From assembly GCA_022448425.1 (NCBI GenBank), contig JAKVCY010000187.1, positions 127 through 64,126 of the forward strand: DNA of 64,000 nucleotides, in the 5' to 3' direction. Positions 4,479 to 26,174 of this stretch are shown here, one piece after another. The DNA is from Thalassotalea sp. (GTDB lineage: Bacteria; Pseudomonadota; Gammaproteobacteria; Enterobacterales; Alteromonadaceae). Below the pieces are notes generated by a model, which searched no databases, was not told the origin of the DNA, and saw nothing but the letters and a program-made list of their open reading frames with translations. The translations under genes and the position numbers were made by a program. Numbering within the stretch: the first letter of the stretch is position 1; every line of letters begins with the position of its first letter.

Positions 4479-4502
4479 AATTAGAAATAAAGGAATTTTA
4501 GA

Positions 4503-4865: not shown

Positions 4866-4871
4866 CTAGTT

Positions 4872-7600: not shown

Positions 7601-7604
7601 CACA

Positions 7605-8090
7605 ATGGAACAAGAATACTTAACCTTTTTACTCAATGGCGAAGAATTTGGCGTAGATATTTTGTGTGTACAGGAAATTAGGGTGCTGAGTAAAGTAACA
7701 GAACTACCTAATAAACCTGACTATTTGAAAGGCGTGATAAATTTACGTGGTGTCATTATTCCTATCGTTGACTTGAGACAACGGTTTGGCAAAGAGCCTA
7801 TGGAATATAACGATAAAACGGTCACTATCATTTTGAAGAGTCAAGATTCAAGAAATCCTTCAATTGTCGGCATTATTGTCGATGCGGTATCTGATGTATA
7901 TAAATTTAGCGTAAGTGATATTCGACCTTCGCCGTCGCTTGGAAATCAAATCGACAATTGCTTTCTTAAAGGCCTAGCGACTGTCGAGAGCAAGTTAATC
8001 ATATTGCTTGATACCAACAATTTATTAAATCAAAACGAACTTTTTACAGTAGACAACGAAGTAGAAGAAGCTGAGTTGCTTGTCGATTAG
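7605..8090 (+). CDS. cheW: CheW adaptor 2
   Basis: GVINLRGVIIPIVDLR; start moved from 7557 to ATG 7605 (MEQEYLTF) just after the cheW1 stop. Confidence 0.92.
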   Translation: MEQEYLTFLLNGEEFGVDILCVQEIRVLSKVTELPNKPDYLKGVINLRGVIIPIVDLRQRFGKEPMEYNDKTVTIILKSQDSRNPSIVGIIVDAVSDVYKFSVSDIRPSPSLGNQIDNCFLKGLATVESKLIILLDTNNLLNQNELFTVDNEVEEAELLVD

Positions 8091-8117
8091 ATACAAGCCT
8101 GGATAGGATTACACATC

Positions 8118-10817
8118 ATGACACCAAAGCAAAACATTGCAGTTATCGAAAGCTGGAAAAAAGTACAGCCGATTGCATCTCAAGTCTCTCAGGTTTTTTA
8201 TGACGACCTTTGCGAAAAACATCCAAGTCTCAAGGCTTTTTTAGGCGAAGAGCTTTCGATCGCGAGAGACCAATTGGTGGCTAACCTAAATTCACTGGTT
8301 GAGACTTTAGTGGCAACTGATGAAGTTGTCATCGAAGACTTAGCAAAACATTTGCGTATTGGATTGGCTCCCGAGCAGTTTTCAGATGTAGGGCCTGCTT
8401 TATTAACATCTCTGGAAGTTGGACTTGAAAAAGACTTTACCGCGACAGTAAAGCGAGCATGGACAGCTCTGAATAAGTTAATTGTGGCAGCGATGGCACA
8501 ACAAGGCGCAAAGGGCACACCTTTAAATAAAGGAAACAAAGAGACTATGGGTACATCTGCCACTACTGATAACGAATTGGCCGTTAGGCTTCAAGGCGCA
8601 TTAGACCAATCTTCAACTGCATTCATGATGATCGATAGAGATTTTATCGTGACTTACGTGAACCAAGCGACGATGGATTTATTATCTGAGCATGAGGCGA
8701 CATTTCAAGTGAAGTGGCCAAACTTTGAAGCGGATAAAGATAAGGTTATCGGCTCATGTATCGACGTGTTTCATGAAAGGCCAGAGCATCAGAGAGAGTT
8801 GTTATCGGATGCGTCAAATTTGCCGTGGAAAACAGATATCCCAATTGAATATCTAACAATAGAAATTAACGTTACTGCGATTCATGACGGGGATGGCAAT
8901 CACATAGGCAACTCACTCGAGTGGCAAGATGTAACACAAGCCCGACACCAAGAAAACCAAGCTGTTCAGTTGCAAGGTGCCGTTGACCAATCAAATACGC
9001 CAAGCATGTTTATCGATCGTGATTTCAATATCACTTATGCGAATAAAGCTACATTGCAACTGTTGAAAAAGCATGAGGCAGTATTTGCTACAAAATGGCC
9101 AGGCTTTAGAGCAGATAAAGAACAGTTGATTGGTACTTGTATCGATGGATTTCATGTAAACCCTGACCATCAGCGTGCGTTGTTAGCTGATCCGAGTAAC
9201 CTTCCTTGGACTACCGATATTCATATTGAGCACCTTACTTTTGAACTCAACGTGACTGCGATAAACGATGCTCAGGGTAATTACATCGGCAATTCGCTGG
9301 AATGGCAGGATGTCACAGAAGTGCGCGATAAAGCGGTGCAAGTTGGACGCTTAATGTCAGCCGTTGAAGGTATGACGACCAATCTAATGATGGCCGATAC
9401 CAAAGGTAACATCGTTTATGCAAACCCTTCAGTATTAAACATGTTACGTCGACGAGAAGCTGAGTTAAAAGCGGTTTTACCTGCCTTTAACATTGATACG
9501 CTCTTGGGTACTAATTTTGATTCGTTCCATAAAAACCCAGCTCATCAACAAAATTTGTTAGGTAATCCTGATAATTTGCCTTATACCACAGAAATTTCTG
9601 TTGCAGGCTTGGCCTTCCAATTAATTGCGATACCACTAAGAGATGATAAGGGCGTGCACTTGGGTAGTGCAGTGCAATGGCTTGACTTGACAGAGCAAAA
9701 AGACACGCAAAATCAAGTTGAAGGCCTGATTAACGCGGCGATCTCTGGAGAGCTAACTCGTCGTATTGATACGTCAAATTACGAAGGGTTTATGAAAAAA
9801 CTTGGCGACAATATTAATAGTTTGATGGACGCTATTATCGAGCCGATAAATGATGCTATAAAGGTTGCTCAAGCGCTCGCTGATGGCGATCTTACGCAAG
9901 CGATGAATGGCGATTATGATGGCGAATTCTTAGCTCTTGCAGATGCCATGAATGATTCGATCGACAATTTGAGTAACATGGTTGACGAAATTCGCGATGC
10001 CTCGACCAATGTATTTGATTCGGCTAGAGAAATTGCCGAGGGCAACAACGAGCTTAGCCACCGCACAGAATCACAAGCCTCAAGCCTCGAAGAAACTGCG
10101 TCTGCAATGGAGCAATTAACCAGTACCGTACAGCAAAATGCGGAGAACGCGACGGAAGCAAGTAAGCTCTCTGCCAATGTTGTGACTAAAGCCGTAAATG
10201 GTGGCGATGTGGTTAAAAATGCTATTACCGCGATGAGTGATATCAATAAATCGAGTAAGAAGATTGCCGATATCATTAGCGTGATCGACGAAATAGCCTT
10301 CCAAACAAACCTACTTGCATTAAATGCTGCGGTTGAAGCCGCTAGAGCTGGCGAGCAAGGACGTGGTTTTGCCGTTGTTGCAGCCGAAGTACGTAACTTG
10401 GCACAACGCTCAGCAGGGGCTGCTAAAGAGATTAAGGGATTAATTAACGATAGTGTTGACGCTGTAAGTCAGGGTACGAAGCTCGTTGACGAAACAGGCC
10501 AAACATTTGAGCAACTTGTTAGTGCTATTGAAGAAGTAGGCAAGATGATAAACGATATCGATAGCGCAGGTAGAGAACAATCTGCTGGTATTGGAGAGGT
10601 TAGTGCGGCAGTTAGTCAAATGGATGAAATGACACAGCAAAATGCTTTACTAGTTGAAGAAGCTGCCGCGTCAAGTAAGTCAATGGAAGAACAAGCTCAA
10701 TTGCTACTGCAGCAAGTTGATTTCTTCAACAATGGCGAGGACGTCGAGGCGGATGCCAAACCAGTGAGGGCTGCTCCAACTAAGTCAACTCATTCCAACA
10801 AGGTATCAAAAACCTAA
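8118..10817 (+). CDS. Soluble Aer2-like chemoreceptor: globin + 3 PAS + HAMP + MCP signalling domain; C-terminal EWEEF tail out of frame (natural end probably 10885)
   Basis: No TM segment; globin helices with FY and LAKH; three PAS repeats with D.FH..P.HQ and EW/QW; [33 protein letters not shown] hairpin tip. Confidence 0.9.
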
Positions 10818-10893
10818 ACCGCCAACAAGAGAGCGCAAGCCGGTTCGACAAAACTGAGTCAGATGATGAATGGGAAGAGTTTTAGGCCAGTCA

Positions 10894-11739
10894 ATGACTA
10901 ACAATAGGGACAAAGCGTATCAGTTAAGTAGCCAAGACTTTAAATTTGTCTGCGACTATGTGTATGACGCAGCAGGCATAGTGCTAGGCGAGTCTAAGCG
11001 TGAAATGCTCTATCGCCGTTTGTCTAGGGTGATAAGAGAACGCGACTTATCAAGCTTTACGGAGTATTGCCAAATACTTCGAAAGCACCCTGAACGCGAG
11101 CAGACATATTTTATTAATGCGGTAACGACGAACTTAACTAGCTTTTATCGAGAAAAACATCATTTTGAGTATTTGCAGAACTATGAATTTCCTAAGCTGT
11201 TAACGCAAAACCTAGCGTCAAAACGTGTTCGAATATGGTCCTCTGCTAGTTCGACTGGTGAGGAGCCCTATAGTTTAGCGATAACAACTTACGAAGCGTT
11301 CAAGTCGTTACTAAGCCAATGGGATGTGAAGATACTTGCGACCGATATCGATAGTAATGTAATAGCCACCGCAAAAGCCGGCGTTTATGACAAAACACGA
11401 ATAGAAGGGATTCCGGGGCAAATCAGAAAGCGCTTTTTTCAACAAGGCACTGGAAACAATCGCGATAAGTTTAAGGTGGTGAGTTCAGCGAGAGATCTGA
11501 TTACGTTCAAAACGTTAAATTTGTTGCATGAATGGCCTATGAAGGGCCCTTTTGATGTGATTTTTTGCCGTAATGTGTTGATTTATTTTGACAAAGAAAC
11601 ACAGCTTTATTTGTTTGAACGCTATTACAATATGTTAAAGCCAGGTGGCTTACTTATGTTGGGACATAGTGAGAGTTTAGGTGCATTTCAGCCATATTTT
11701 GAAAATGTTGGCCGCACAATTTTTCGTAAGCCAGTTTAA
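10894..11739 (+). CDS. cheR: Chemotaxis methyltransferase CheR
   Basis: TTNLTSFYRE, WSSASSTGEEPYS, ATDID, CRNVLIYFD; start at ATG 10894 preferred because ATG 10870 overlaps the receptor tail. Confidence 0.93.
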   Translation: MTNNRDKAYQLSSQDFKFVCDYVYDAAGIVLGESKREMLYRRLSRVIRERDLSSFTEYCQILRKHPEREQTYFINAVTTNLTSFYREKHHFEYLQNYEFPKLLTQNLASKRVRIWSSASSTGEEPYSLAITTYEAFKSLLSQWDVKILATDIDSNVIATAKAGVYDKTRIEGIPGQIRKRFFQQGTGNNRDKFKVVSSARDLITFKTLNLLHEWPMKGPFDVIFCRNVLIYFDKETQLYLFERYYNMLKPGGLLMLGHSESLGAFQPYFENVGRTIFRKPV

Positions 11740-11768
11740 GTTGAGATTGGTTTTACAGAGTATTAGAG

Positions 11769-12431
11769 ATGTTAAGAACCGCAGAAAGGATTGAGGTTAA
11801 GTCTGTGTTGGCTAAATGCCTTCCAGAGTTTAAACACATTAACCATTATTGGGACAAACAAAGAAATATTGTCGTCGCTAAGATTTTGCCCGGAGAGTTC
11901 TATATGACCTCAAACGCGCTGACAATTTCGACTACATTAGGTTCATGTATCGCTGCTTGTATATGGGATGACCGAATGGGGATTGGTGGGATGAATCATT
12001 TTATGCTGCCAATCACTGATAAAAGCATCAACGAGGTTGACTGGGGAAGTCGAGGGTTAGCAAGTGATGCTTATAGATATGGCAATTTCGCCATGGAGCA
12101 CTTGGTAAACACCATTTTAAAAAATGGAGGTTATCGAGATAATTTGAAAGCCAAGGTTTTTGGTGGTGGCAAAGTATTGAAAAAAATGTCTGACGTTGGA
12201 GAACGTAACATTGATTTTGTGTTTGATTACTTATCAACTGAGAAAATCTCTGTTGTTTCGTATGATGTAGGATCGATATATCCGAGAAAGGTACTGTTCG
12301 AGCCAACGACAGGGAGAGCATTTGTTAAAAAACTTGATAACCTATCGAATGACACTATTGCACAGCGGGAACAAGATTACCGTTCGAGTATTGATAGTGG
12401 CCATGTTGAAGGCGATGTCGAGCTGTTTTAA
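11769..12431 (+). CDS. cheD: Chemoreceptor glutamine deamidase CheD
   Basis: PGE, TTLGSCIAAC, GGMNHFMLP, KVFGG; C-terminal extension ending GDVELF. Confidence 0.93.
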   Translation: MLRTAERIEVKSVLAKCLPEFKHINHYWDKQRNIVVAKILPGEFYMTSNALTISTTLGSCIAACIWDDRMGIGGMNHFMLPITDKSINEVDWGSRGLASDAYRYGNFAMEHLVNTILKNGGYRDNLKAKVFGGGKVLKKMSDVGERNIDFVFDYLSTEKISVVSYDVGSIYPRKVLFEPTTGRAFVKKLDNLSNDTIAQREQDYRSSIDSGHVEGDVELF

Positions 12432-12448
12432 CTAGCGGGTGAAAGGAT

Positions 12449-13531
12449 ATGAAAAAGATTAAGGTATTAATCGTTGATGATTCGTCTGTTATCCGAGGGT
12501 TAGTAAAGGAAATTATTAATCAGGATAGCGAGTTGGAAGTTGTTGGCGAGGCTCAAGACCCATATGTTGCACGCGATAAAATAAAACAGCTTAATCCGGA
12601 CGTTATTACGCTAGATGTAGAGATGCCGAAAATGGACGGCATTACCTTTTTGAGCAATCTCATGCGTTTAAGGCCTATGCCGGTAATTATGTTATCGACG
12701 CTGACTGAGAATGGTGCCGACATTACTTTGAAGGCACTAGAGTTGGGTGCAGTCGACTTCATTACCAAGCCTAGCTTTGAGTCTTTACTAGAGAATCGCA
12801 TGGTATTCAAAGATGACTTGATCGCAAAGATAAAGTCAGCCGTTGGCGTTGATCAAAAAGGGTTACAATTAGCCTCAACACTAAGAAAGTCAGATAACCA
12901 ATCAATTCTCTCCTTTACTGGTTGTAAGCGTAGTAATCATATAGTAGCCATTGGTGCGTCTACTGGTGGTACTGATGCAATTAAATCGATTTTGACGAGA
13001 CTGCCCAGTAATAGTCCGCCTATTGTAATAACACAGCACATACCACCAAAGTTTAGTGAACGATTTGCCAATAGACTCAATGAACATTGTGCTGTCACGG
13101 TTCAAGAAGCTAAACACGGACAAAAAATTAAGACAGGTAATGTGTATATTGCGCCGGGTGATCAACACTTAGTCGTTGTAGCAAAAGGCGGTGCGCTTTT
13201 CTGCACGTTAACTGATGAAGCACCAGTCAACAGGCATCGACCAGCGGTCGATGTGTTGTTTAATTCACTTTTACCCATGGCGGATAACGTTCAAGCGGTA
13301 TCGCTAACCGGCATGGGAACTGACGGTGCTAAAGGGATGCTGGATTTAAAAAATGCCGGTGCGAGAACAATTATTCAGGATAAAAATACCAGCTTAATTT
13401 GGGGAATGCCGGGCAGTGCGCATGCACTTTCTGCACATTCATCTGTGCTACCTTTAGATAAAGTTGCATTTGAAGTCCTTGATTTTGCGAAATTATCAAT
13501 AAAAGAAATGAAAGAGGTTGTAAATGGCTAG
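12449..13531 (+). CDS. cheB: Chemotaxis methylesterase CheB
   Basis: REC (TLDVEMP) + esterase [25 protein letters not shown]. Confidence 0.95.
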
Positions 13532-14717
13532 TGCCAATTTAAAACAAACTCTAATTGCGACACTGGCGTTGTCACTATTGTTATTGCTCAATGAATGGGT
13601 GCTAAATATTGGGGCGCTCAATACTGCGTTTTACCTGTTACTTATTGCGGCAGCAGGTTACGGATTGTTCTCTATGCAAATTCTTGATCAGCATCAGGGT
13701 GATGATCAAGATTTAGAAGGGGTTATTACTGAGGAAGTGAACCGATCGTTCAATGAGTTAGTAAGAGATTTAAAGGCCGTAATTGAACAAGAAACCTTGG
13801 TTCTATCTCAAGAGCATGAACGAGTTTCTATGTTGGTCAGAGATGCTGTCTTGGGTATTTCAGAGAGTTTTAAGTCGCTTCAGCAATTGAGCGCTGAACA
13901 GCAAGGTATGATTGAACACTTGATTAACTTTAATCAAAACCTCGGTGATGATGAAGAAACTAGCCTTGAGACGTTTGTCCAAGGTTCTAACAGAACATTG
14001 GAGAATTTTGTTGGTGTTATTATCAACACAAGTAAGCAGAGTCTAGAAACTATGGGATACACTGATGAAATGGTATCCAAGTTTGACAGCATATTTTCCC
14101 TTCTCGAGCAGGTAGAGGGCTTAGCGACTCAAACTAACTTATTAGCTCTTAATGCGGCAATTGAAGCAGCACGAGCAGGTGATGCTGGTCGCGGTTTCGC
14201 GGTAGTTGCTAATGAAGTAAGAGCGCTTTCACAGAACTCAACCGAATTAAATAACAACATTCGTGGACAGATATCTTCAGCACAAGAAACGATTGCTAGC
14301 TTGAGAAAATCGGTTGAAACTATAGCGTCAGCTGATATGAATCCTACACTTGAGGCGAAGCATCAAGTGATTGTCATGATGCAACACATTGCAGATGTGA
14401 ATAATAAAACACAAGGTGCGGTGGAAGAGTTGGCGTCTATTGCACCGCAAATAGCGGATGCCGTAACTACCGGTGTACGTGCATTACAATTTGAAGATTT
14501 GACCTATCAATCACTTGATTCTTTGACATTTAACATTAATAACTTAGTTAATATTAGTGAGCAGCTAGGCGACTTGGAAATTGATGCTAATATTGTGATA
14601 AAGCTGACATCTTTACATGACCAGTGTCAGGAACTTTTAACCAACTCAAAACAAGCTAATCAAGTACGCAGTGTCTCGCAGTCATCAATGGATGAAGGTG
14701 AAGTAGAATTATTTTAA
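13524..14717 (+). CDS. McpA/CttP-like chemoreceptor without periplasmic sensor
   Basis: Two adjacent N-terminal TM helices, [18 protein letters not shown]-terminus GEVELF like P. aeruginosa McpA. Confidence 0.85.
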
Positions 14718-14732
14718 CGAGGAGCTCGATAC

Positions 14733-15041
14733 ATGACCGTAAAAAAAATAACTAGTGATAGCGGTAAAGACGTTACCATTTCAATCGAAGATCGATTTGA
14801 TTTCTCGCTACATCAACTTTTTAGAGATAGCTATGCTGACTCAACTGCCAGCGGTAGTAAATTTACGCTAGACCTTTCAAAAACGTCTTATATGGATAGT
14901 TCAGCGCTTGGCATGATCTTGCTATTGAAAGATCACGCTGAGAAGATTAGTGGCAGCGTTACTATATCTAAACCGAGCGAACCAGTCGCAAAAATTCTGG
15001 AAATTGCGCAATTTAATCGCTTGCTAAAAATCGAGAAATAG
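14733..15041 (+). CDS. STAS anti-anti-sigma-type protein (HsbA/SpoIIAA-like)
   Basis: LDLSKTSYMDSSALGM contains the phosphorylatable Ser motif. Confidence 0.85.
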   Translation: MTVKKITSDSGKDVTISIEDRFDFSLHQLFRDSYADSTASGSKFTLDLSKTSYMDSSALGMILLLKDHAEKISGSVTISKPSEPVAKILEIAQFNRLLKIEK

Positions 15042-15043
15042 CA

Positions 15044-16762
15044 ATGGCAAGCGCACTCGAGCGTCGTTACAAATTAGCACTGGTTGTTGATGATTCAGTA
15101 ATGCAGTGTAAGGTATTGAGCGTGCTGCTCAAGGAGGAGGGCTATCGAGTCTTTACTGCCAATGACGGTGCTCGTGGTGTGGAGATGTACATAAAGTATC
15201 AGCCGGATCTGGTACTTATGGATATTAACATGCCGGTGATGGATGGCTATGAAGCAGCAAGGCAAATTAAAGCCTTGTCTAAACATACCCTTGCACCACT
15301 TATTTTTATCACCAGTATTGATACTGACCAGGCATTTATCGACAGTATTGAAGCAGGTGGTGACGGAATACTTGTCAGGCCATTTTCGCCAGAAGTTTTT
15401 AAAGCGAAGATAAAATCCATTCAGCGAATCAGTGATTTATACATACAGGTAAAGTCACTTCAACAAGCACAGCAAAAAGATGCTGAACTAGCTGAACAGT
15501 TGATGTCAGGTGTAATTGAATCAAGAAACTTCGCACTTGACCGCATCGGAATTGTTAAAAAAGCGGCTGAACTTTTTAGCGGTGATATTCAGTTAACAGC
15601 TCAATGTCCTAATGGCGATGTCAACGTATTACTTGGAGATTTCACAGGGCACGGGTTACGTTCGTCTATTGGCGCAATACCGCTAGCTGAAACCTTCAGG
15701 GTGATGACGAGGAAAGGCTTTTCACTTTTCGAAATCATCAGCCAATTCAATAGTCAACTATATGACTTACTTCCATCAGATCTGTTTTTAGCTGCAACAT
15801 TTATTAGTGTTTCTAGTCAAGACTCTACTGCATACATCTTCAATGCAGGACTTCCTGATACTTATATTTACAGTGATGAGGGCGAGGTTAGTCACAAACT
15901 TGGTTCGAGTCACCCACCATTAGGTGTATTGGAAAGTTTATTGCCTGGTAGCCAGTTAAGGGTTGTTTACATTAAAGATTCTGATCGCATATTGACACTT
16001 AGTGACGGGATTATTGAAGCGCGCAATGCCGATGGTGAAATGTATGGTATTGAGCGTTTCGAGCAAGCTGCTGAGTTGGGCTTTAGAAATGGCGCAGTGA
16101 CAGATACCATTGTTGCTGACTTAGAAAGCTTCTGTGAAGGAACGCTGCAAGAAGATGATATTTCTCTTATCGATATTCCATGTAACGGCTGGGAACCTTC
16201 CTTGTCTGTGGCACATTCAACTGTCGCTTCGGTAAGCGATGTAGAGTTTCAAGAGATCAAGCAAACAGGCGCTTCTTGGAGTTGGAAGCTAGTGCTCATT
16301 GGTGACAAACTCGCGAAAGTAAACCCTATCCCTATGGCCATGAGCTATTTGCACGAAATAGAGGGAAACAGCGAACAGTGGCAAAACCTCTACACTATTT
16401 TAACTGAGCTTTTTATCAACGCTTTAGATCATGGAGTGCTTGGGCTTAGTTCCGATCTCAAAAAAGAAGCAGAGGGTTTTGCACTATACTTTCAGGAGCG
16501 AGAGGAGAGGTTAAAGCAACTTGCGGTAGGTTCAGTAGAGATAATGTTGAACTTTGTGCGTGCGGAAGCAGGTGACGAAGTCGTTATAGAGGTTAAGGAC
16601 AGTGGAAATGGCTTTGATTTCGAGAAGGTACAAGAAAAGTTACAAGAAACTTCAGAATTATCATTGAGTGGTAGGGGAATTCAGCTCGTCTCTAAGCTTT
16701 GTAATGGTCTATATTATAAAGATAAAGGAACGCACGTAATCGCTAAATATGCAGTGAACTAA
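15044..16762 (+). CDS. REC-PP2C(SpoIIE)-Ser kinase fusion (HsbR-like)
   Basis: REC LMDINMP; PP2C LGDFTGHG, SDG, EDDIS; HATPase ELFINALDHG, DSGNGF, SGRGI. Confidence 0.87.
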   Translation: MASALERRYKLALVVDDSVMQCKVLSVLLKEEGYRVFTANDGARGVEMYIKYQPDLVLMDINMPVMDGYEAARQIKALSKHTLAPLIFITSIDTDQAFIDSIEAGGDGILVRPFSPEVFKAKIKSIQRISDLYIQVKSLQQAQQKDAELAEQLMSGVIESRNFALDRIGIVKKAAELFSGDIQLTAQCPNGDVNVLLGDFTGHGLRSSIGAIPLAETFRVMTRKGFSLFEIISQFNSQLYDLLPSDLFLAATFISVSSQDSTAYIFNAGLPDTYIYSDEGEVSHKLGSSHPPLGVLESLLPGSQLRVVYIKDSDRILTLSDGIIEARNADGEMYGIERFEQAAELGFRNGAVTDTIVADLESFCEGTLQEDDISLIDIPCNGWEPSLSVAHSTVASVSDVEFQEIKQTGASWSWKLVLIGDKLAKVNPIPMAMSYLHEIEGNSEQWQNLYTILTELFINALDHGVLGLSSDLKKEAEGFALYFQEREERLKQLAVGSVEIMLNFVRAEAGDEVVIEVKDSGNGFDFEKVQEKLQETSELSLSGRGIQLVSKLCNGLYYKDKGTHVIAKYAVN

Positions 16763-16771
16763 AGGCTAACC

Positions 16772-17001
16772 ATGAATGTTTTGATTGTTGACGATGATAA
16801 GTTAATGAGAAATGTGCTTAGTACTATGGTTAATCAAGCCGGACATCAAGCTTTCGCTGCCAATGGAAGTAGTCAAGCATTGGCATTAGTTGTAGCGACG
16901 ATTCGGCGACAGACAAGGATGAGCTTGTTTCACAGGCAGACAAAGCGCTTTACCTTGCAAAGAGTCAGGGCAGAAAATGCTACAGAGTGTATAAAAACTA
17001 A
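16772..17001 (+). pseudogene. REC-GGDEF gene remnant with large internal deletion
   Basis: REC start MNVLIVDDD...QAL; from 16876 another frame reads SIGISCSDDSATDKDELVSQADKALYLAKSQGRKCYRVYKN* (GGDEF C-terminus, TAA 16999-17001). Confidence 0.85.
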
Positions 17002-17019
17002 AAATCCAAGGGAGGTAAA

Positions 17020-18183
17020 GTGTTAGAAAAAAAATCGGTTCTTATTATTGATGATGATATGCAGTATTTAGAGTTGCTGTCTGAGTGTTTAGAGAATTCT
17101 TTTGCAGTTAAGGCCGCCTGTTCTATTTCTCATGCAGAGTCTATCGTAGAAGAGAACGGTAAATTTGATATTGCGCTTGTTGATGAATACATCGGTGATG
17201 ACATTGGTTCTGATTGGATCAAAACATCGGTTGATATAGGCAGTGTAGCTAGTTCGTTTGTCTTGTACTCTGGTTTGGCGACTGAAGACGCCATTATTAA
17301 AGGCTTAGAATGTGGTGCTGATGACTTTCTTGCAAAACCAATCTCTTTACTGACGTTAGAACAAAAGTTAACCAAGCTCATTAATTATCAAAATAAAATT
17401 GAGGGCTTTGAGAGCGAGTTAAGTTCAAAAGAACGTGTTATCAATGTTTCTATGGCACAGGCTTCCAAGTATGGTGCCTGTATGCAACTCACTTCACGTT
17501 TAAACCATTGCTTTAGTTTGGATGAGATAAGAGACGAACTTTTTTCATTTCTGTACGGAATGAATTTACATGGCTGTGTAGCATTTTATCCTCTGTCGGG
17601 TCAGCCGCTATTCTTCAGTTCTAAAAATGGTGTTTGTTCACCGGTAGAAGTAGAAGTGATGGAGGTCCTAAAGAGAAAACCACGTCTGTATCGTTTTGGA
17701 AACCGAACTATATTTAATCACCCATTGGCTTCTATTTTAATTCTGCATTTAGAAGAGGGCGCCATTGACACTGATATTTACATTGACGCCCTTGCGTCGG
17801 TAATACAGTGTGTAGGTGCTCGTATTGCATTTATTACTTACAAAAATTCGCTTGTTGAAGTTCAAGAACAAATTCAACAGGCGGTTGTTACGACCAAGAA
17901 AATGATCGAAATATCAAAACGGCATCAACAAGAGGTAATGAATGAGATTGTTCAAAATATTGGTATGAGTTTTCATGAATTGGATATGAATGAAGCCCAA
18001 GAGGACTATTTAACCGAGCTTATTCATAACGCCCTTAAACGACATACACAAGATGACGTTAACTTCCTAGAAGTGACTCGATTATTAGATGATGCCTTAT
18101 CAAGTGTCGACAAACTTAAATCACTCAATCAAGAGCAGCGAGTAGTGCCGCCAGAGCTTGATGAAGATGATGAGTTATTTTAA
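17020..18183 (+). CDS. Response regulator: REC + uncharacterised GAF-like/coiled-coil region
   Basis: IIDDD, LVDE, YSG, AKP receiver residues; about 260 aa C-terminal region ending EDDELF. Confidence 0.75.
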   Translation: MLEKKSVLIIDDDMQYLELLSECLENSFAVKAACSISHAESIVEENGKFDIALVDEYIGDDIGSDWIKTSVDIGSVASSFVLYSGLATEDAIIKGLECGADDFLAKPISLLTLEQKLTKLINYQNKIEGFESELSSKERVINVSMAQASKYGACMQLTSRLNHCFSLDEIRDELFSFLYGMNLHGCVAFYPLSGQPLFFSSKNGVCSPVEVEVMEVLKRKPRLYRFGNRTIFNHPLASILILHLEEGAIDTDIYIDALASVIQCVGARIAFITYKNSLVEVQEQIQQAVVTTKKMIEISKRHQQEVMNEIVQNIGMSFHELDMNEAQEDYLTELIHNALKRHTQDDVNFLEVTRLLDDALSSVDKLKSLNQEQRVVPPELDEDDELF

Positions 18184-20360
18184 TGTCAAACGTGCTCTCA
18201 GCAATAGAAGAACTTCCTTTTCCAGTTATCTCTATAGATAATAATGGCAATATCTTTACGTTGAATACATTAGCATCTAGCAAGTTTGAATACGAGGAAA
18301 CTGAACTTGCCGGCAAACCTCTTTCTTCGCTAATGACTACGCTTCAGTGTGAAGTGTTTGAGAACAGAAACAATGGCAACGCAAGTAATCAAAAGCATGA
18401 TCGTTGTGATTACAAAGTCATTACGAAATCCTGTAAATGGTTATATTTTTCTGGTTATCAAAAGCGCTCTGGCGACTTGGTTGTTTATTATTTTACAACT
18501 GAAGTAGATGAAGTAGATGAAATTCTTACCCAGTTTAGCCAAAGTCGTTCACTTATCTCACAACTTAAAGAACAAAATTCCTATCTGAAAATGGCTGAAA
18601 AAATCAGTCATTCCGGTCACTGGCGTTATTGTGTTGAAACAAGCTTTATGTTTTGGTCAACTGAGCTATACAATATTTTCGGCACTACCCCTGATAAATT
18701 TACCCCTTCGTCTGAGAATGATTTTGCTTTCTATGCCCCTTCAGAGCGCGATGAAATTAAGCAGCGGTTCTTTCAAAGTATATCTTTAGGAAAGCCTTAC
18801 TATCACAAATCATCGATAAAGTTATCTTCAGGTAGAAAGTTACGGTTAGAGATTATTGGCGAGTGCGAATTTGATAGCGCCGGTAAAGTCACTGCGCTGT
18901 TTGGCATATGCCGAGACGTCACTCAGAACGAGATTGTTTTCGAAAAACTGAAGTTATTGGCAATGGTGAACTATACCATTAAAGTGCCGATATTTTTTAT
19001 CGATGAACAAGACCACGTGGTTTACCAAGAATTGTCTCCTCAAGGCATGGCCTCTGGCGATGCAGGTTTGTTTAATAACATCAATTTTACCATTGAGGAG
19101 TATTTGTTATTTAAAAAAACGGCGAAAAAATCTGGCCAATTAAAAAGAACTCATGTGAGTTTTGACGAGTTCAACACTGTGTTTGATTTTTCAGTTACCT
19201 ACGAAGCACAGGAAGGAATTTACATTTGGATTGTTGAAAATGTAACGGAGAGGTTTCGCAAGGAGCAACAGCAAATTATTAGTAACCGCCTCGCTTTGCT
19301 AGGAAATACCTATGGCGGCGTTTCCCATGATATCAACAATATTTTAGGTGTTGCGCTTGGCGCTATTGAAATGTTGGAGATGAAAGTAGCGATGGGAGAA
19401 CAGAGTATCGCTAAGTATATTGATAGGGTGAAGAATGCTATCGACAAAGGTAAAGGAGTTACCGAACGACTACTTGCTTTTACAAGAAAGCCGATGGTGA
19501 AAGTCGTAGAGTTCGACCCGGTTCAGGAAATCATCGATAACAAGTACTTATTTCAACAAATGCTAATGAGTCCAATAATAAAGTTGTCATTTGATTTGCC
19601 CCTAGAACACTGCACCATTAATTTCCCTAAGGGTGAGTTCATCAATATTCTTTTAAATCTTGTTTTGAACTCTCAAGATGCCATCAAGGAGCAGGGGTTA
19701 AACGGCGAAATAAAAGTTTCAGTGACTTACAATGAAAGTGGTAGTGTCGAAATACACGTAATTGACAGTGGTATCGGTATCGAGTCGGAAAACATTGGCA
19801 AGATCTTTGACCCTTTTTATTCAAGTAAATCCGTAAATAAAGGGAATGGGATAGGGCTCGCGAATGTTTATAGCACTGTTTATAAACACAATGGCGAGAT
19901 AAAAGTGCAGGGGAAATCTTCTTTAGGCGGCGCACACTTTATGCTGTCTTTCCACTGCAAACGAGACGCGCTTATTCCTGCGAAACAAGAAGACAACACA
20001 GGACAAGATTTAATTGCTCAGTCTCGAATTTTGATACTTGATGATGAGGAGAGTATTGCTGAGTTTGTAGCGCTTTTTCTCGCCGATTTGGGTGCTAAAA
20101 CCGTAAAGGTATCTGACAAAGAAGCGCTTATTGATGCGGTCGAACATAAAGGGAAATTTGATATCTTTATCACCGATATGATTTTGCCCGAATTGACAGG
20201 TAAAGAGGCTGTTAGTATCGTCAAGCGCCATCAGCCGGATGTCCAGATTTTATCGATGAGTGGCTATATCGATAGCGAAGACGATAACTGGCCTTATCCA
20301 TTATTACGTAAACCATTTAATTCAGGAGAGCTTACTGAATTTTTAGCTCATTTGGGTTAA
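18183..20360 (+). CDS. Cytoplasmic PAS-PAS hybrid histidine kinase with C-terminal REC
   Basis: H-box GGVSHDINN, NLVLNSQDA, DSGIGI, GNGIGL; REC LDDEE...ITDM...KP; no TM. Confidence 0.88.
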   Translation: MSNVLSAIEELPFPVISIDNNGNIFTLNTLASSKFEYEETELAGKPLSSLMTTLQCEVFENRNNGNASNQKHDRCDYKVITKSCKWLYFSGYQKRSGDLVVYYFTTEVDEVDEILTQFSQSRSLISQLKEQNSYLKMAEKISHSGHWRYCVETSFMFWSTELYNIFGTTPDKFTPSSENDFAFYAPSERDEIKQRFFQSISLGKPYYHKSSIKLSSGRKLRLEIIGECEFDSAGKVTALFGICRDVTQNEIVFEKLKLLAMVNYTIKVPIFFIDEQDHVVYQELSPQGMASGDAGLFNNINFTIEEYLLFKKTAKKSGQLKRTHVSFDEFNTVFDFSVTYEAQEGIYIWIVENVTERFRKEQQQIISNRLALLGNTYGGVSHDINNILGVALGAIEMLEMKVAMGEQSIAKYIDRVKNAIDKGKGVTERLLAFTRKPMVKVVEFDPVQEIIDNKYLFQQMLMSPIIKLSFDLPLEHCTINFPKGEFINILLNLVLNSQDAIKEQGLNGEIKVSVTYNESGSVEIHVIDSGIGIESENIGKIFDPFYSSKSVNKGNGIGLANVYSTVYKHNGEIKVQGKSSLGGAHFMLSFHCKRDALIPAKQEDNTGQDLIAQSRILILDDEESIAEFVALFLADLGAKTVKVSDKEALIDAVEHKGKFDIFITDMILPELTGKEAVSIVKRHQPDVQILSMSGYIDSEDDNWPYPLLRKPFNSGELTEFLAHLG

Positions 20361-20396: not shown

Positions 20397-23300
20397 ATGC
20401 ACGGCGGTCCGAATCAAAATAAACAAAGAGGCTTTCTTTCACTTAGGTACAAGCTCACAGTAACTAGCTTTCTGGTATCGCTTGTAGCTGCCTTAGTGAT
20501 TTATTCTAGCTTTTATTTTCAAGGACGAAATATTCTCGACGAAAGCGCAGAATATGAAGTGCAACAAGAAGTTGATTTCATTGCGCCAGTAGTGAGTAAT
20601 TTAGTTAATCAAGCTCTTTTTGACACAGAGATTATCAGCAAAGCGCCAACGCTCAATGAATTGATAGCTGCCCATGTGAAAAACAGAGCTACCGACTCTC
20701 TGCAACTTGATAGTATAACTGCCATTGTCAACGGCATGCTTTCCCTGGCCGTTAGTGGCAAAAGCGAGTTTGCCCATATGATGCTAAGAGATGAAAGCGG
20801 TCAAATTCTTGCCCAAAGTCAGAACGAACGATTATCTCAAGAGTTTTACGCACAAATCCAAGATATTGCTCAGAGAGCAATAATTGAAGAAGGCGTAACA
20901 GCGAACAACCAATCAGTTTCTTTTAAATTTTTTACGCCACAAACTAGTTCGGCAAACAATAGTGGTTCTAGTTCAACAAATAGAAGTGGGGAGCAACAGT
21001 TATTCACTCAAGATAAAGCAGATATTAGGGGTTACCTAATTATCTTTAGGCAGATTGGTGCTTCCAATGAGTCGCCATTGTTTTTGGTCGCGACTGTAGC
21101 ACTTGAAAGCATTATGTCGGTAATAGATGCATTCCAGCGTGATGATAAATATTACTATCTCGTCGCCGCTGATAGCACTGTAGCGTATCAAACCGCAGAT
21201 ACTCGGCAATTAATTGAAGCCGAAACGAGTGTAGGCGAAGAGATAGTAAAATTAGTAAACAGTGATGTTTCTGCTTCGTTTGTTAGCCTAGATGAGGTGA
21301 TGCAGCATTCGATTAGTATTGCGTTTGCCCATCGCTTATCTTTCTCAGAAGGGAAAGTGCTATCTCCTTTATACCTGATTGCGTTACATCGAGAAAATCG
21401 ATTGGCGCAGGCGTTCAATCGACTAGAAGGACAAGCTATTGTTGTCGGTGTTTTGCTTGCTATTGCTATTTCTGCGCTTTCACTGCTTTTAGCCAACCGC
21501 TTAGTTCGACCTATGCTAAGCATGATGAAAAGCATTGAAGTATATGAAGAGACGGGGAAAATTGAGGCATTGCCAACGATCAAAAATGACGAAGTTGGAC
21601 GTTTAGCGCTGAGCTTTAAAAAAATGGTAGCCAGTGTTCAACGGCATCAAGCCTCATTGCTGGAAGTTGTTGATAGAACAAATCATACATCCAAGCTCTT
21701 GCAATCTGTCTTAGACTCGCTGCCGGACGCTTTAATTCGTGTAGATAGTGATGGGCATATTATTGCCTTTAATCACGCCGCAGAAACTATGTTTGATTAC
21801 ACAGAATCCCGGGTTTCAGGCCAACACTTTGGTTTGTTGATGCCCTATGAATTCAACCAAAGATTTCCAACGTTTCAGCAGTATATCGATGAGCAACAGG
21901 ATAAACCTTATCGCGGAGATGGCGATGAACAATCGGCAATTCGAAGAGATGGTGAGATATTCCCTGTTTTGATTAATTACAGTGTTGTTAATGCGGATAC
22001 TGTCAAGTCATACACTGTGACAGTTAAAGACAATACCTATTCTAAACTCCTAGAGTCGGAGCGTTTGGCTGCGCTTAAGGAAACTAAAGATCTTGCATGG
22101 CGCCTAGATTTTGCCCTGTCCGCGTCGCAAGTGGGAGTATGGGAGTTCAATAGCCAAACCAATCGTTTATCTTGGGATAAACGCACGTATCGACTTTATG
22201 GTTTTGAAAATAGGGATAATGTTTACCCTGAACAAGTTTGGCTAAAATCTATTGACGCCGAGTACCGAGAAACGGTCAAGTCAGCCATAAACGACTCGCT
22301 TAAAACCGGTCAAAATTTACATCAAATATACCGCGTTAATCTACCCGCGGGGAACTCAGTGTTTCTCGAAACTCATGCCAAGGTAATCTTTGAATCGCAG
22401 GGTAAGTATCATCGTATAGTGGGAACTAGCCAAGATGTTACCGAACAACACCTATTGGATGAATTAAAGCAGAATGCCCTTGATATGGCTGAGGATTCAC
22501 TGAAACTAAAATCAGAATTTCTTGCCAGTATGAGCCACGAAATTCGTACCCCTATGAATGGCGTCCTCGGCATGCTTGGTTTACTCGGAAATAGTGAGTT
22601 GACTAAACAACAGCAACACTATTTAGAACTTGCCAGTTCAAGCGCTCACTCATTATTAGATTTACTTAACGATATCCTTGATTTCTCTAAAATTGAAGCT
22701 GGAAAAATTGACATTGAGAATGTTGATTTTAATCTTACTCAACTGTTTTGCAATGTAGCGGAGTCGTTTGCTTTCAAGGCCCAAAAGAAAGACGTTGAAT
22801 TAGTACTAGATGTAGCCAACTTGAATGGCGTAGATGTTAGTGCCGATCCCACGAGAATCAGGCAAATTCTCACTAATTTAATCAGCAATGCCATCAAGTT
22901 TACAGAGCAAGGTGAAGTGGTTGTAAAGGCAGAGGTTAAGCCTATGTCGGACGGCGTTGAGCTAACTTGTTCGGTGCAAGACTCTGGCGTAGGCATTGAA
23001 AAAGAGCACATAGATAAGCTTTTTGATTCATTTACTCAAGTCGACTCTAGTACAACGCGTAAGTATGGTGGTACAGGACTTGGACTTGCGATTGTTAAGA
23101 AACTTTGTAATTTGATGGGTGGTGAGATTGAGGTAGAGAGTAAGTTAGGTCAGGGGAGTATATTTAGCTTCAGCTTAGCTTTACAAAAGTCAACGAAATT
23201 TAGACATGCTATCCAAAGTTTAGATGAAAAAGAATCAACTGATGTGAAAGGCTCTAGTCATTCTGCTCAGTTTGAAAACCTAAATGTGTTGATTGTTGAT

Positions 23301-24683
23301 GGCAATAAGAGCAGTGCAAATGCCCTTTCGACGCTGATGGCCACATGGGGTATTACCCCTTCAATTGTTAACAGTGGTCAACTAGCACTTGATGCGTTAA
23401 GTACTAGTGCAGATTCACCCATTAATATCGCGATGATTAACTGCACTTTAGAGGATGATACTGGCGCGGAACTTTGTCATAAGCTCGTGGAAAGTGAACA
23501 TAACTACGGTGATATTAAATGCGTCCTAATGACACCCATCGCCTATAGAAACGATACTGCAATGGGAAATATCGAAGTGATCGCTGATATTTTATCAAAA
23601 CCTATTAATCCTAATTTGTTGCGCGATGCGCTGACTAATTTGACGCAAGGAAGTGGCAGTGACGCAAAAGTAGAGAAGCACATAAAGTCAATTGATATCA
23701 GTAGTAAAGCCCGGTTCGGTAATACATTTGCAATTCAAGCCTTTGCCGAAGCAATAAAAGACAATGCCAACGGCGAGAGAAAACAACTTGAGAAAACGCT
23801 TGAGCGCATTAAATTACTTGTCGTAGAAGATAATCGAGTCAACCAGGCGGTCATTAAAGGCTTGCTTGAATGTATGCCAGCAGATATTACCCTGGCTGAG
23901 AATGGCCTAGAGGCACTAAACCTACTAAATCAACAACAGGTGGATTCGGAACAGGACGTATTTGACTTGGTGTTAATGGACTGTCAGATGCCGGAAATGG
24001 ATGGTTATCAAACAACACAAGCGATTAGAGCAGGTAAAGCTGGGGAGGCTTACCAAACAATCCCCATTATCGCGATGACCGCGAACGCGATGAAAGGTGA
24101 CAAGGAAAAGTGCCTTGCCGTAGGCATGGATGATTACCTTGCCAAACCGATTTATACAGCCCTTTTCTTTGAAAAGCTTGCGCATTGGGGGCTTGCAGTA
24201 ACAAAGGCTGATGTTATTGAAGAAGAGGCCTTTGCTTTGGAAATTGAAGCGCAACAAGATGCTAAAGAAGTGGACGACATTAACATTGATGAAATGCACT
24301 CCCTGACTGATGGTGTTAGTAGTGAATTCGTTTCAATTATTTGGGATGAATATGCGCTGTTAAAACGGGTACGTGACAATAAAGTGCTCGCAGAAAAACT
24401 TTTAAAGCTATTTGTTGATGAAGCCCCTGAACAGCTTTCGTCAATCCTACGAGCGCTGGAAAACCGTGATAAAGAGCAAATCATAGCTCATGCGCATAAG
24501 CTTAAGGGAGCTGCCAACAATATCAGTGCTAAGCAGCTTGGCGAACTACTCTATGATTTGGAGTTTTCTGCGAAGTCCGGTGAACTCGATAAACTAACGC
24601 ATTTTCAAACAACTTTGCCATCATGCTATCAAGCGTTGGTGGAAAGACTTAATGACTATTTTGCAAGTTTGCATGTAGAATAA
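20397..24683 (+). CDS. Membrane unorthodox histidine kinase: TM-sensor-TM-HAMP-PAS-PAS-HisKA-HATPase-REC-REC-Hpt
   Basis: FLASMSHEIRTPMNG, NLISNAIKFT, YGGTGLGL, LMDCQMP, Hpt AHKLKG. Confidence 0.92.
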   Translation: MHGGPNQNKQRGFLSLRYKLTVTSFLVSLVAALVIYSSFYFQGRNILDESAEYEVQQEVDFIAPVVSNLVNQALFDTEIISKAPTLNELIAAHVKNRATDSLQLDSITAIVNGMLSLAVSGKSEFAHMMLRDESGQILAQSQNERLSQEFYAQIQDIAQRAIIEEGVTANNQSVSFKFFTPQTSSANNSGSSSTNRSGEQQLFTQDKADIRGYLIIFRQIGASNESPLFLVATVALESIMSVIDAFQRDDKYYYLVAADSTVAYQTADTRQLIEAETSVGEEIVKLVNSDVSASFVSLDEVMQHSISIAFAHRLSFSEGKVLSPLYLIALHRENRLAQAFNRLEGQAIVVGVLLAIAISALSLLLANRLVRPMLSMMKSIEVYEETGKIEALPTIKNDEVGRLALSFKKMVASVQRHQASLLEVVDRTNHTSKLLQSVLDSLPDALIRVDSDGHIIAFNHAAETMFDYTESRVSGQHFGLLMPYEFNQRFPTFQQYIDEQQDKPYRGDGDEQSAIRRDGEIFPVLINYSVVNADTVKSYTVTVKDNTYSKLLESERLAALKETKDLAWRLDFALSASQVGVWEFNSQTNRLSWDKRTYRLYGFENRDNVYPEQVWLKSIDAEYRETVKSAINDSLKTGQNLHQIYRVNLPAGNSVFLETHAKVIFESQGKYHRIVGTSQDVTEQHLLDELKQNALDMAEDSLKLKSEFLASMSHEIRTPMNGVLGMLGLLGNSELTKQQQHYLELASSSAHSLLDLLNDILDFSKIEAGKIDIENVDFNLTQLFCNVAESFAFKAQKKDVELVLDVANLNGVDVSADPTRIRQILTNLISNAIKFTEQGEVVVKAEVKPMSDGVELTCSVQDSGVGIEKEHIDKLFDSFTQVDSSTTRKYGGTGLGLAIVKKLCNLMGGEIEVESKLGQGSIFSFSLALQKSTKFRHAIQSLDEKESTDVKGSSHSAQFENLNVLIVDGNKSSANALSTLMATWGITPSIVNSGQLALDALSTSADSPINIAMINCTLEDDTGAELCHKLVESEHNYGDIKCVLMTPIAYRNDTAMGNIEVIADILSKPINPNLLRDALTNLTQGSGSDAKVEKHIKSIDISSKARFGNTFAIQAFAEAIKDNANGERKQLEKTLERIKLLVVEDNRVNQAVIKGLLECMPADITLAENGLEALNLLNQQQVDSEQDVFDLVLMDCQMPEMDGYQTTQAIRAGKAGEAYQTIPIIAMTANAMKGDKEKCLAVGMDDYLAKPIYTALFFEKLAHWGLAVTKADVIEEEAFALEIEAQQDAKEVDDINIDEMHSLTDGVSSEFVSIIWDEYALLKRVRDNKVLAEKLLKLFVDEAPEQLSSILRALENRDKEQIIAHAHKLKGAANNISAKQLGELLYDLEFSAKSGELDKLTHFQTTLPSCYQALVERLNDYFASLHVE

Positions 24684-24743: not shown

Positions 24744-26174
24744 ATGCAAACTATTCTAGCGGTTGACGACGCTAAAGATACATTGATGTTATTAGAATTC
24801 GATTTGCAAGCCGAAGGCTATCAAGTTGTGACCACTAATGATGGTCTCTCTGCACTCTCTCGAATGGAGCATGGCGATATCGATCTCGTCTTACTCGATC
24901 TATATATGCCCGATTTCTCCGGGTTGCAAACCCTGCAAGCAATTCGTGAAAACGCAGATTTTGTTAATGTTCCAGTGGTTATGCTTTCTGCTTCAGACGA
25001 CGAAGACGAAATTGTCGAAGCGTTGGAGTTGGGTGCTCATGATTATGTTACAAAACCATACATTGCCAAGGTATTACTGGCTCGTATTCGCAATGCTTTG
25101 AGATTGAGAGAAAACTCTCTGAAGTTGGAAAATTTGGCACATAAAGATCATCTAACTGAATTGAATAATAAAGGGCATTTTGAAGAGCTAGCAAATAAAT
25201 CGATTAGCCATATGTCGCGCCAGAAAGAAAGTATAGCGATTGCGATGGTGGATATTGACCACTTCAAAAATGTTAATGATACCTATGGTCACGATGCTGG
25301 CGACAATGTACTGAGCTTTGTCGCAAAGTTGTTAGAAAAATCTTTCCGTGACTATGACATTGTAGGTCGAGTGGGTGGCGAAGAGTTTGCTGTGTGTATG
25401 CCTCACACTGAAAATCAAGATGCCTTTAATGCTTGTGAAAGGTTTCGTAAGAAACTTGCAAATGCGATTATTCCAATTGGTGAAGAATTGTCTATTAGTG
25501 TCACCACGAGTATAGGTGTGACCTCTGGCAATAGTGCTAATGGTGAGTTTGACTTTAAACAGTTAATGCATACTGCGGATGAAGCTTTATATGAAGCAAA
25601 AGCGACTTCTCGTAATGTCACTATTAGCCATTTTAGCGCTATGCTTAATGAAGAGCAGTCGGAAGTGACAAATGCGAGTTCAACAGAGGAAAGCCAGCCG
25701 ACAGAGAGTGTCTCAATGAGTAACCTCGATAGTGAGAGCTTTACTGATAGTGACGCATCTGTTAGCAATGCATCAGTTTCACTTGAGGACTTTACAACAG
25801 AGGATGTGAAAATGACGGAAGTAAATTCAGTGGAAATGGACGGTATTGACTATCAAATTGGCGTAGGTAACGTTTTAGGTGATGATGATTTATTTCGAGA
25901 AATCCTTCAAATGTTCCATGATGATCACCATCAAGATGGCGAAAAGATTCAGCAAGCTATTACATCAGAGGACTATGCTCAAGTGAAAAGTGTGGTTCAC
26001 ACGCTAAAAGGCGTATCCAGTTCAATAGGCGCTATGGAGCTTTTCGAGCAAACGAAATTACTTGATATTGCTATAAACCAGTATGACGCTGATAACTATC
26101 AACGTTTGTTTGAAAACGTCTCCTTCCAATTGACTCGCGTAATTTCAACGATAAAAAAAGAGCTAAACATATAA
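24744..26174 (+). CDS. REC-GGDEF diguanylate cyclase fused to C-terminal Hpt domain
   Basis: REC LLDLYMP; RDYD I-site and GRVGGEEF; acidic Ser-rich linker; Hpt VHTLKGVS. Confidence 0.88.
   Translation: MQTILAVDDAKDTLMLLEFDLQAEGYQVVTTNDGLSALSRMEHGDIDLVLLDLYMPDFSGLQTLQAIRENADFVNVPVVMLSASDDEDEIVEALELGAHDYVTKPYIAKVLLARIRNALRLRENSLKLENLAHKDHLTELNNKGHFEELANKSISHMSRQKESIAIAMVDIDHFKNVNDTYGHDAGDNVLSFVAKLLEKSFRDYDIVGRVGGEEFAVCMPHTENQDAFNACERFRKKLANAIIPIGEELSISVTTSIGVTSGNSANGEFDFKQLMHTADEALYEAKATSRNVTISHFSAMLNEEQSEVTNASSTEESQPTESVSMSNLDSESFTDSDASVSNASVSLEDFTTEDVKMTEVNSVEMDGIDYQIGVGNVLGDDDLFREILQMFHDDHHQDGEKIQQAITSEDYAQVKSVVHTLKGVSSSIGAMELFEQTKLLDIAINQYDADNYQRLFENVSFQLTRVISTIKKELNI

Follow-up and report, generated by a model that had tools for sequence, protein, structure and literature searches.

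A conserved REC-GGDEF-Hpt fusion as a candidate link between sensor kinases, c-di-GMP and a sigma-factor partner switch in Thalassotalea and its relatives

In a 64,000-nucleotide stretch of the genome of Thalassotalea sp. (assembly GCA_022448425.1, contig JAKVCY010000187.1, positions 127 to 64,126 of the forward strand; hereafter the window), the gene at 24744-26174 (+) encodes a receiver (REC), a GGDEF domain, a linker and a histidine phosphotransfer (Hpt) domain in one chain. We label it RGH. The reading that we favour, and to which we give somewhat better than even chances, is that RGH belongs with the cyclases of the DgcR/WspR type, activated by phosphorylation and inhibited by their product, and is tethered to the cluster's equivalent of HptB; the receivers of Hpt-less hybrid kinases would charge His419, and His419 would discharge both to Asp52 of RGH and to the receiver of a neighbouring CrsR/HsbR-like protein. 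One protein would in this way probably link sensor kinases both to cyclic di-GMP (c-di-GMP) and to a stress-sigma partner switch. The evidence that carries this reading is the conservation of the three-domain fusion, the position of its Hpt within the cluster, and a genus in which the histidine is retained while the acceptor aspartate of its own receiver, or the whole receiver, has been lost.

RGH is read from a frame free of stop codons, with a GAGG Shine-Dalgarno sequence 6 nt 5′ of its ATG, and starts 60 nt past the stop of the upstream kinase gene. Its parts are as follows:

24744-26174 (+): RGH gene, 476 amino acids (aa), a single open reading frame with three Pfam domains
24753-25091 (+): receiver, residues 4-116, with the phospho-acceptor D52 at 24897-24899 (Pfam Response_reg, E 6.7e-27)
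25065-25142 (+): continuous helix from REC to GGDEF, residues 108-133 (secondary structure of the AlphaFold2 (AF2) model)
25137-25616 (+): GGDEF domain, residues 132-291, with the RDYD I-site at 25347-25358 and GGEEF at 25374-25388 (Pfam, E 9.5e-45)
25629-25835 (+): disordered tether rich in acidic residues and serine, residues 296-364 (low model confidence, low identity)
25836-26171 (+): Hpt domain, residues 365-476, with H419 at 25998-26000 (Pfam Hpt, E 8.6e-11)

All three Pfam domains exceed their curated cut-offs, the Hpt match (residues 386-455) with 42.4 bits against 24.6. The acceptor pocket of the receiver is complete (D8, D9, D52, S82 and K104). The GGEEF motif occupies residues 211-215, and R202-D-Y-D205 ends exactly five residues before it, with IVGRV between; five residues is the canonical spacing between I-site and GGDEF motif. 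In the Hpt domain the histidine is H419 of HTLKGVSSSIG (family form HTLKGVxxSxGA), preceded by a conserved helix, GIDYQIGVxNVLGD. The initial annotation, made from the sequence alone, had described an active-looking GGEEF with an RxxD I-site and an Hpt with a conserved His, and both descriptions hold, the motifs being invariant in 28 aligned orthologues. It had also placed an acidic and serine-rich linker of about 60 residues between the two domains; the composition is as described (16 D/E, 23 S/T and a single K/R), and the length is somewhat greater, 69 aa. We found no tandem repeats in this expanded linker, and a scan for promoters and terminators around RGH performed no better than on shuffled sequence. 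Within the tether, at 25800-25814, a GAGGA is followed 7 nt on by an in-frame ATG (Met357). Of the relatives, only the nearest two, at 97% and 85% identity, retain this methionine, and the tether is otherwise unconserved; a start here could in principle yield a free Hpt of ~120 aa, and in a GA-rich acidic linker it may well be due to chance.

The AF2 model of RGH (mean predicted local distance difference test (pLDDT) 80) contains three folded modules. The tether is below 50 across residues 299-362, and the Hpt is all-helical, its helices at 381-474 having a pLDDT of 85-94. Since the predicted template modelling score (pTM) is only 0.48, the model gives no prediction of how these modules are arranged with respect to one another. 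In Foldseek the top match of the model is the diguanylate cyclase DgcR (6zxb_A; target-normalised TM-score 0.85, root-mean-square deviation 3.4, 294 columns, 32% identity), followed by PleD and WspR. The NCBIfam model for DgcR matches RGH at E 2e-61, and, because its 207 bits fall short of the equivalog cut-off of 500, RGH is not a DgcR orthologue or equivalog. The best match of the RGH Hpt in PDB sequences is the Hpt of a Shewanella sensor (E 0.004); all such matches are weak and do not justify calling it an orthologue of any Hpt of solved structure. RGH has no HisKA and HATPase_c core according to Pfam, and so is not an unorthodox kinase of the ArcB/BarA type.

To establish how widespread this architecture is, we searched 5.8 billion proteins: REC, GGDEF and Hpt occur together in 120 of the 120 best relatives (429-488 aa). 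Those with a name come from Thalassotalea, Colwellia, Thalassomonas and metagenome-assembled genomes of Colwelliaceae/Alteromonadaceae, and are annotated merely as 'diguanylate cyclase'. An RGH-type Hpt is present in 43 of 151 genomes of the same GTDB family and lies, in 41 of these 43, within a frame of 410-493 aa, that is, in the fusion; the free form was seen in only two genomes and a few metagenome contigs. Across 372 genomes from 30 other families of the order there was no RGH orthologue, only generic kinase Hpts, and when the Hpt by itself was run against 1.8 billion cluster representatives, only ~20 exceeded 43% identity. As far as these searches extend, the family is confined to genera of the Thalassotalea/Colwellia/Thalassomonas type. 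The initial annotation had named a read-through artefact absent from relatives as what would refute the fusion; the architecture search removes that objection, and sequence comparison indicates that the fusion is a real conserved family. Neither a REC-GGDEF-Hpt nor a GGDEF-Hpt layout was found described in the open-access literature, which by itself does not prove that no description exists.

The pattern of conservation indicates that the Hpt is as much under constraint as the enzyme to which it is joined. Residues D8, D9, D52, S82, K104, D170, D172, N178, D179, R202, D205, G211 to F215 (GGEEF), H419, K422 and G423 are invariant in the 28 orthologues, and the receiver pocket, RxxD, GGEEF and H419xxKG are retained in 20 of another 22 genomic copies that we checked. 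Pairwise identity averages 0.62 for REC, 0.52 for GGDEF, 0.53 for Hpt and 0.11 for the tether, from which we conclude that the Hpt is constrained like a catalytic domain, whereas the tether is merely needed. Tether length varies between 23 and 71 aa in relatives, that of RGH exceeding most. Beyond these, the searches found just one more distant relative, the metagenomic P0150 lineage (L034, 8001-9341, 446 aa), which is 40% identical, keeps the His as HKLKE without a Pfam Hpt call, and possibly represents a separate lineage of the fusion; its gene context is unrelated to that of RGH loci, and an unannotated protein of 1133 aa follows. A metagenomic copy of the fusion found in two independent assemblies (L028, 2-1041; L029, 1-1040) is frameshifted inside GGDEF, and its Hpt is entered in gene calls as a protein of its own, of 123 aa. 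P0123, considered as an independent free Hpt, was rejected, as it is this frameshifted RGH.

RGH is the last of 17 genes on the same strand (4194-26174) and is followed by the convergent yfaE-nrdB-nrdA genes. The genes upstream of it are:

4194-14717 (+): chemosensory genes of Che1/F7 type, coding for STAS, CheY, CheA, CheW, CheW, an Aer2-like methyl-accepting chemotaxis protein (MCP), CheR, CheD, CheB and a soluble McpA-like MCP (Pfam)
14733-15041 (+): STAS anti-sigma-factor antagonist of CrsA/HsbA type (Pfam STAS, E 3.8e-12; TIGR00377)
15044-16762 (+): REC-PP2C(SpoIIE)-HATPase_c_2 protein of CrsR/HsbR type (Pfam), hereafter REC-PP2C-kinase
16772-17026 (+): remnant (84 codons) of a second, plain REC-GGDEF gene (match to an intact gene in locus L002)
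17020-18183 (+): REC protein with an output region of ~260 aa of no assigned family (Pfam, REC only)
18183-20360 (+): hybrid kinase of 725 aa, PAS-PAS-HisKA-HATPase-REC, without Hpt (Pfam)
20397-24683 (+): unorthodox hybrid kinase of 1428 aa, HAMP-PAS-HisKA-HATPase, a degenerate REC1, REC2 and its own Hpt (Pfam)

The 12 leading genes of the cluster, from 4194 to the REC-PP2C-kinase, match the content of the che1 locus of S. oneidensis (PMC9855816). Two of the genes that follow could feed RGH. The kinase at 18183, hereafter the 18183 kinase, has an intact H-box (SHDINN) and an intact receiver Asp (DIFITD), and Pfam confirms the earlier observation that it has no Hpt; it is a candidate donor to the Hpt of RGH. 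The kinase at 20397, hereafter the 20397 kinase, lies directly upstream of RGH and has its H-box (SHEIRTP) at 714. Its REC1 (residues ~1000-1130) carries Asn at the acceptor position (NIAMINCTLEDD), and it is canonical in REC2 (DLVLMD; DLVLMDCQMPEMDG) and in its Hpt (HAHKLKG), a domain that the initial annotation had omitted. The genome has eight frames with an Hpt (CheA, the 1428-aa kinase, another unorthodox kinase, a REC-Hpt frame, two frames of 384 aa, a free Hpt of 132 aa and RGH) and 16 that combine HATPase_c and REC without one, the 18183 kinase among them, so that many kinases need an Hpt in trans.

The ~260 C-terminal residues of the REC protein at 17020 have no match in Pfam or NCBIfam; its orthologues are 58-76% identical (43% in the most divergent, L025) and hold the same position in most of the loci where the gene is present. 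An intact REC-GGDEF gene of 290 aa occurs in L002-L004, L018-L020 and L031, and that of L002 matches the window twice in different frames, with residues 6-48 at 16763-16891 and residues 271-311 at 16876-16998. Judged by these matches, the frame at 16772-17026 is a collapsed second cyclase gene with an internal deletion of ~220 codons.

We then compared 30 genomic loci and three metagenome contexts, mapping the proteins of the window onto each; the genomes sampled are related and partly incomplete. RGH stands beside yfaE-nrdBA almost everywhere, and the content upstream of it is variable. The full cluster is found as in the window in L002, L003, L004, L006 and L011. The order of STAS, REC-PP2C-kinase, optional genes and RGH is conserved. 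In L009 and L012 the nearest cluster gene detected upstream of RGH, a short distance away, is an orthologue of the 18183 kinase, and the only Hpt of the cluster is that of RGH. In L008, L016 and L030 RGH directly follows the REC-PP2C-kinase. An RGH-type Hpt gene, fused or free, directly adjoins the REC-PP2C-kinase in five loci (the same three, L007 and L013): in L007 (17109-17489 (+), 126 aa) and L013 (6727-7119 (-), 130 aa) it is a free Hpt of the same clade placed immediately after that gene, as in the order hsbA-hsbR-hptB. A third free Hpt (127 aa, 63% identical to that of RGH) lies on the metagenome contig L027 (6001-6384 (+)), after STAS, REC-PP2C-kinase, a REC protein and an Hpt-less hybrid kinase of 841 aa that is orthologous to the 18183 kinase. 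The motifs GID..G..NVL and HTLKG are kept in all three.

Relationships among these Hpts were assessed with a maximum-likelihood tree, in which the fused and free RGH-type domains form one clade (support 93/97) apart from other Hpts, and the free forms of L007, L027 and three metagenomes group with the fused copy of L008 (100/98). The domain is short, the bootstrap had not fully settled and the base of the tree is unresolved, so that the tree no more than hints at whether fission or fusion took place.

Orthologues of the REC-PP2C-kinase (at least 52% identity) occur in 39 of the 151 genomes: 34 have both this gene and an RGH-type Hpt, nine have the Hpt without the kinase, and five the kinase without the Hpt. 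In 33 of the 34 genomes that have both, the genes lie on one contig and the same strand, with the RGH-type Hpt downstream and within ~12 kb. As the genomes are related, no statistic is attached to these counts. In the nine genomes with the Hpt only (L005, L010, L014 and L021-L026), RGH stands alone between a pepP-like gene and yfaE, or with only a small REC-Hpt protein upstream; no REC-PP2C-kinase was detected anywhere in them at E ≤ 1e-40, and there is no che cluster at the locus. Conversely, L018-L020 have the partner switch and the plain REC-GGDEF of 290 aa without an RGH-type Hpt, and L017 has the partner switch with neither of these two genes. The description of RGH as the likely output node of the cluster holds only in part: the gene is anchored by yfaE-nrdBA and persists in nine genomes without the partner switch and without che genes at the locus. 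The proposal that RGH merges the roles of an HptB-like protein and of a cyclase gains comparative support, the Hpt lying in the slot where L007 and L013 have a free Hpt of the same clade.

Small REC-Hpt proteins (294-343 aa), homologous to the C-terminal part of the 1428-aa kinase, were seen directly before the fusion in L005 (16611-17642 (+)), L015 (2150-3157 (-)) and L025 (16772-17656 (+)), placing two Hpt domains in consecutive genes.

The most telling variants come from a single genus, g53. Its fused copies (L008, 868-2223 (-); L030, 1020-2372 (-)) carry D52N, reading LILLNMYMP, the sole exception at a receiver residue among 23 genomic copies, and they keep D8, D9, S82, K104, RxxD, GGEEF and H419. 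We looked for relaxed selection on these D52N receivers and did not find it: they are 91% identical to each other and 61% identical to those of other genera, which is the family average. In the third genome of the genus (L007) REC-GGDEF is gone and the Hpt is retained. In all three, the gene that bears the Hpt comes directly after the REC-PP2C-kinase, and the cluster lacks a hybrid kinase. Retention of H419 in D52N copies, and of the Hpt where REC-GGDEF is gone, shows that His419 has a selected role beyond phosphorylating its own receiver, for which the adjacent receiver of the partner switch would be the obvious client. On the other hand, the nine genomes with RGH only keep it intact, so that the Hpt must also have a role without the partner switch, most simply one with its own receiver.

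Taken together, these observations suggest the following mechanism, in which we infer from sequence every phosphotransfer step, its direction and the cyclase activity itself. Receivers of Hpt-less hybrid kinases would phosphorylate His419, the 18183 kinase being the candidate in cis and 15 others being encoded in the genome. His419 would pass the phosphoryl group to Asp52 of the same protein, in cis or across a dimer, and phosphorylation of Asp52 would shift the register of the REC-GGDEF helix and turn on the synthesis of c-di-GMP, which the RxxD I-site would limit through product inhibition. His419 would also phosphorylate the receiver of the CrsR/HsbR-like REC-PP2C-kinase and so set the STAS partner switch. 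This last role is suggested by gene order and by the retention of the histidine where its own receiver is dead or lost.

Several observations weigh against this reading. At least four well-assembled genomes have a REC-PP2C-kinase orthologue without an RGH-type Hpt, and L019, one of these, also has the Hpt-less kinase with no Hpt nearby; the RGH-type Hpt is hence not obligatory for either partner. The 20397 kinase, with an Hpt of its own, could serve Asp52 without His419 and would be an equally good donor to the receiver. The similarity between the RGH Hpt and HptB of P. aeruginosa (7c1i_A) is negligible (E 0.44, 14 bits), and the equivalence of the two is consequently one of position only. The CrsR linked to che1 in Shewanella is thought to be fed via the Che1 system, and its locus has no Hpt (PMC9855816). 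Finally, the AF2 model gives no confident docking of Hpt on REC and no confident packing between domains.

A stronger form of the proposal is that RGH acts as a branching relay node, in which one tethered His shares out phosphoryl groups to two receivers, that of its own cyclase and that of the CrsR/HsbR-type partner switch, so that c-di-GMP synthesis would be hard-wired to the freeing of a sigma factor, be it a stress or a flagellar one. We regard it as tentative, with chances clearly below even. If true, it would point to a phosphodonor route into che1-linked switches of the CrsR type, and the series from full fusion through D52N fusion to free Hpt would be a record of such a node decaying into an HptB-like protein.

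Among the other explanations, the one that survives best, although we consider it rather unlikely, is that the relay runs with the opposite polarity. RGH would then be half of an unorthodox relay, D1-H2, into which a cyclase has been inserted: phosphate would reach Asp52 first, from the Hpt of the adjacent 1428-aa kinase, from an orthodox kinase or from CheA, switching the cyclase on, and His419 would next take it over and hand it to the receiver of the REC-PP2C-kinase. In kinases of the ArcB/BarA type REC precedes Hpt and phosphate travels from D1 to H2 to D2, and REC likewise precedes Hpt in RGH. Apart from the window, there are nine loci (L001-L006, L011, L015 and L025) in which the gene immediately before RGH is an orthologue of the 1428-aa kinase, with its Hpt, or a REC-Hpt remnant, and in L008 and L016 RGH comes after the partner switch in clusters that lack a hybrid kinase. 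However, the D52N receivers of g53 cannot be phosphorylated and yet the histidine is conserved, the Hpts of L007, L013 and L027 have no REC in their own chain, and nine genomes with RGH have no partner-switch receiver to take the phosphate. The D52N copies and free Hpts imply that His419 must be able to accept phosphate from the receiver of another protein, and hence that the opposite polarity cannot be the only route. Since transfer between Hpt and REC is reversible, this explanation overlaps with the one we favour.

It is less probable still, and in our opinion unlikely, that the Hpt is a private entry port serving its own receiver only, so that the cyclase is insulated from other relays and adjacency to the partner switch reflects shared regulation. 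The nine genomes in which RGH is found without the partner switch are consistent with this, as are the at least four well-assembled genomes showing the reverse, and a tether of 23-71 residues would raise the local concentration of Hpt near its own receiver. A private port does not account for the free Hpt kept directly after the REC-PP2C-kinase once REC-GGDEF has been lost (L007 and L013), nor for H419 in the D52N copies, as decay of the His would be expected after loss of Asp52. Were the Hpt to feed only its own receiver, RGH would be a tidy but ordinary domain fusion.

We find it quite improbable that the Hpt takes no part in a relay and works as a docking or dimerisation module, or as a phosphate sink, that modulates the cyclase only. 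The low pTM and the disordered tether leave room for such a role, since the model shows no function. Against it, the HxxKG motif of His419 is invariant in the 28 orthologues, in 22 genomic copies and in the free forms, the His is kept even in P0150, and the Pfam score of the Hpt is above the cut-off. As for an artefact in which sequencing error or read-through joined separate REC-GGDEF and hpt genes, its probability is negligible: nothing was found in support, the broken copies go the other way (in L028 and L029 a frameshifted fusion was called as a separate Hpt), RGH is one frame without stops, and the same fusion recurs in independent isolates and metagenomes among the relatives and in the family genomes.

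Hpt proteins are the bottlenecks of multikinase networks. Current research on the HptB/HsbR/HsbD system of Pseudomonas and on the CrsR/CrsA system of Shewanella is asking how one Hpt selects its partners from several receivers and what couples c-di-GMP to phosphorelays. In RGH, evolution has physically tied an Hpt to a receiver-controlled cyclase, and the lineage provides ready-made natural controls: copies whose acceptor Asp is dead and whose His is live, Hpts that are free, and fusions in genomes that have no partner switch. It offers a compact system in non-pathogenic marine bacteria for asking whether tethering sets relay specificity, which kinases feed a CrsR-type switch, and whether the outputs in c-di-GMP and sigma factor are stoichiometrically linked.

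The predicted logic of the circuit is that of HptB-HsbR-HsbA-HsbD and of CrsR-CrsA. In P. aeruginosa HptB phosphorylates HsbR, and CrsR/CrsA are homologues of HsbR/HsbA (PMC6482189); in S. oneidensis the CrsR/CrsA partner switch acts on RpoS (PMC9855816). Like the RGH cluster, the HptB pathway (PMC5085249, PMC6482189) has a STAS antagonist and a REC-PP2C-kinase followed by an Hpt on the same strand; there, Hpt-less hybrid kinases feed the Hpt, a diguanylate cyclase is part of the circuit, and the output concerns the choice between motile and biofilm states and a sigma factor. In that pathway, however, the Hpt is free (116 aa), and HsbD is a separate cyclase without a receiver that is controlled by binding phospho-HsbA. 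In the RGH cluster the Hpt is instead tethered to a receiver-controlled cyclase, an architecture that is not HsbD-like, and the REC-PP2C-kinase is linked to che1, as is CrsR. Nor is RGH a stand-alone protein of ~116 aa like HptB, the fused form prevailing across the family genomes that carry it.

The Che1-CrsR-CrsA locus of S. oneidensis (PMC9855816; Bouillet et al. 2016 as cited there) shares with the window CheA/Y/W/R/D/B, Aer2, McpA, STAS and REC-PP2C-kinase genes, all in one direction. As described, it comprises 10 genes and contains no Hpt, hybrid kinase or cyclase, whereas loci of the Colwelliaceae type have up to five added signalling genes, with RGH as the last. As for the cyclase, DgcR of Leptospira, WspR and PleD (PDB 6zxb, 3bre and 1w25) resemble RGH in the acceptor pocket of REC, the helical connector, GGEEF and the RxxD I-site, and differ from it in that none has an Hpt. 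The succession of a receiver and an Hpt in one chain, with the logic His-Asp-His-Asp, is shared with ArcB, BarA, the 1428-aa kinase of the window and free REC-Hpt proteins; compared with such REC-Hpt modules, RGH has no kinase core and carries a full cyclase and a disordered tether between its receiver and its Hpt.

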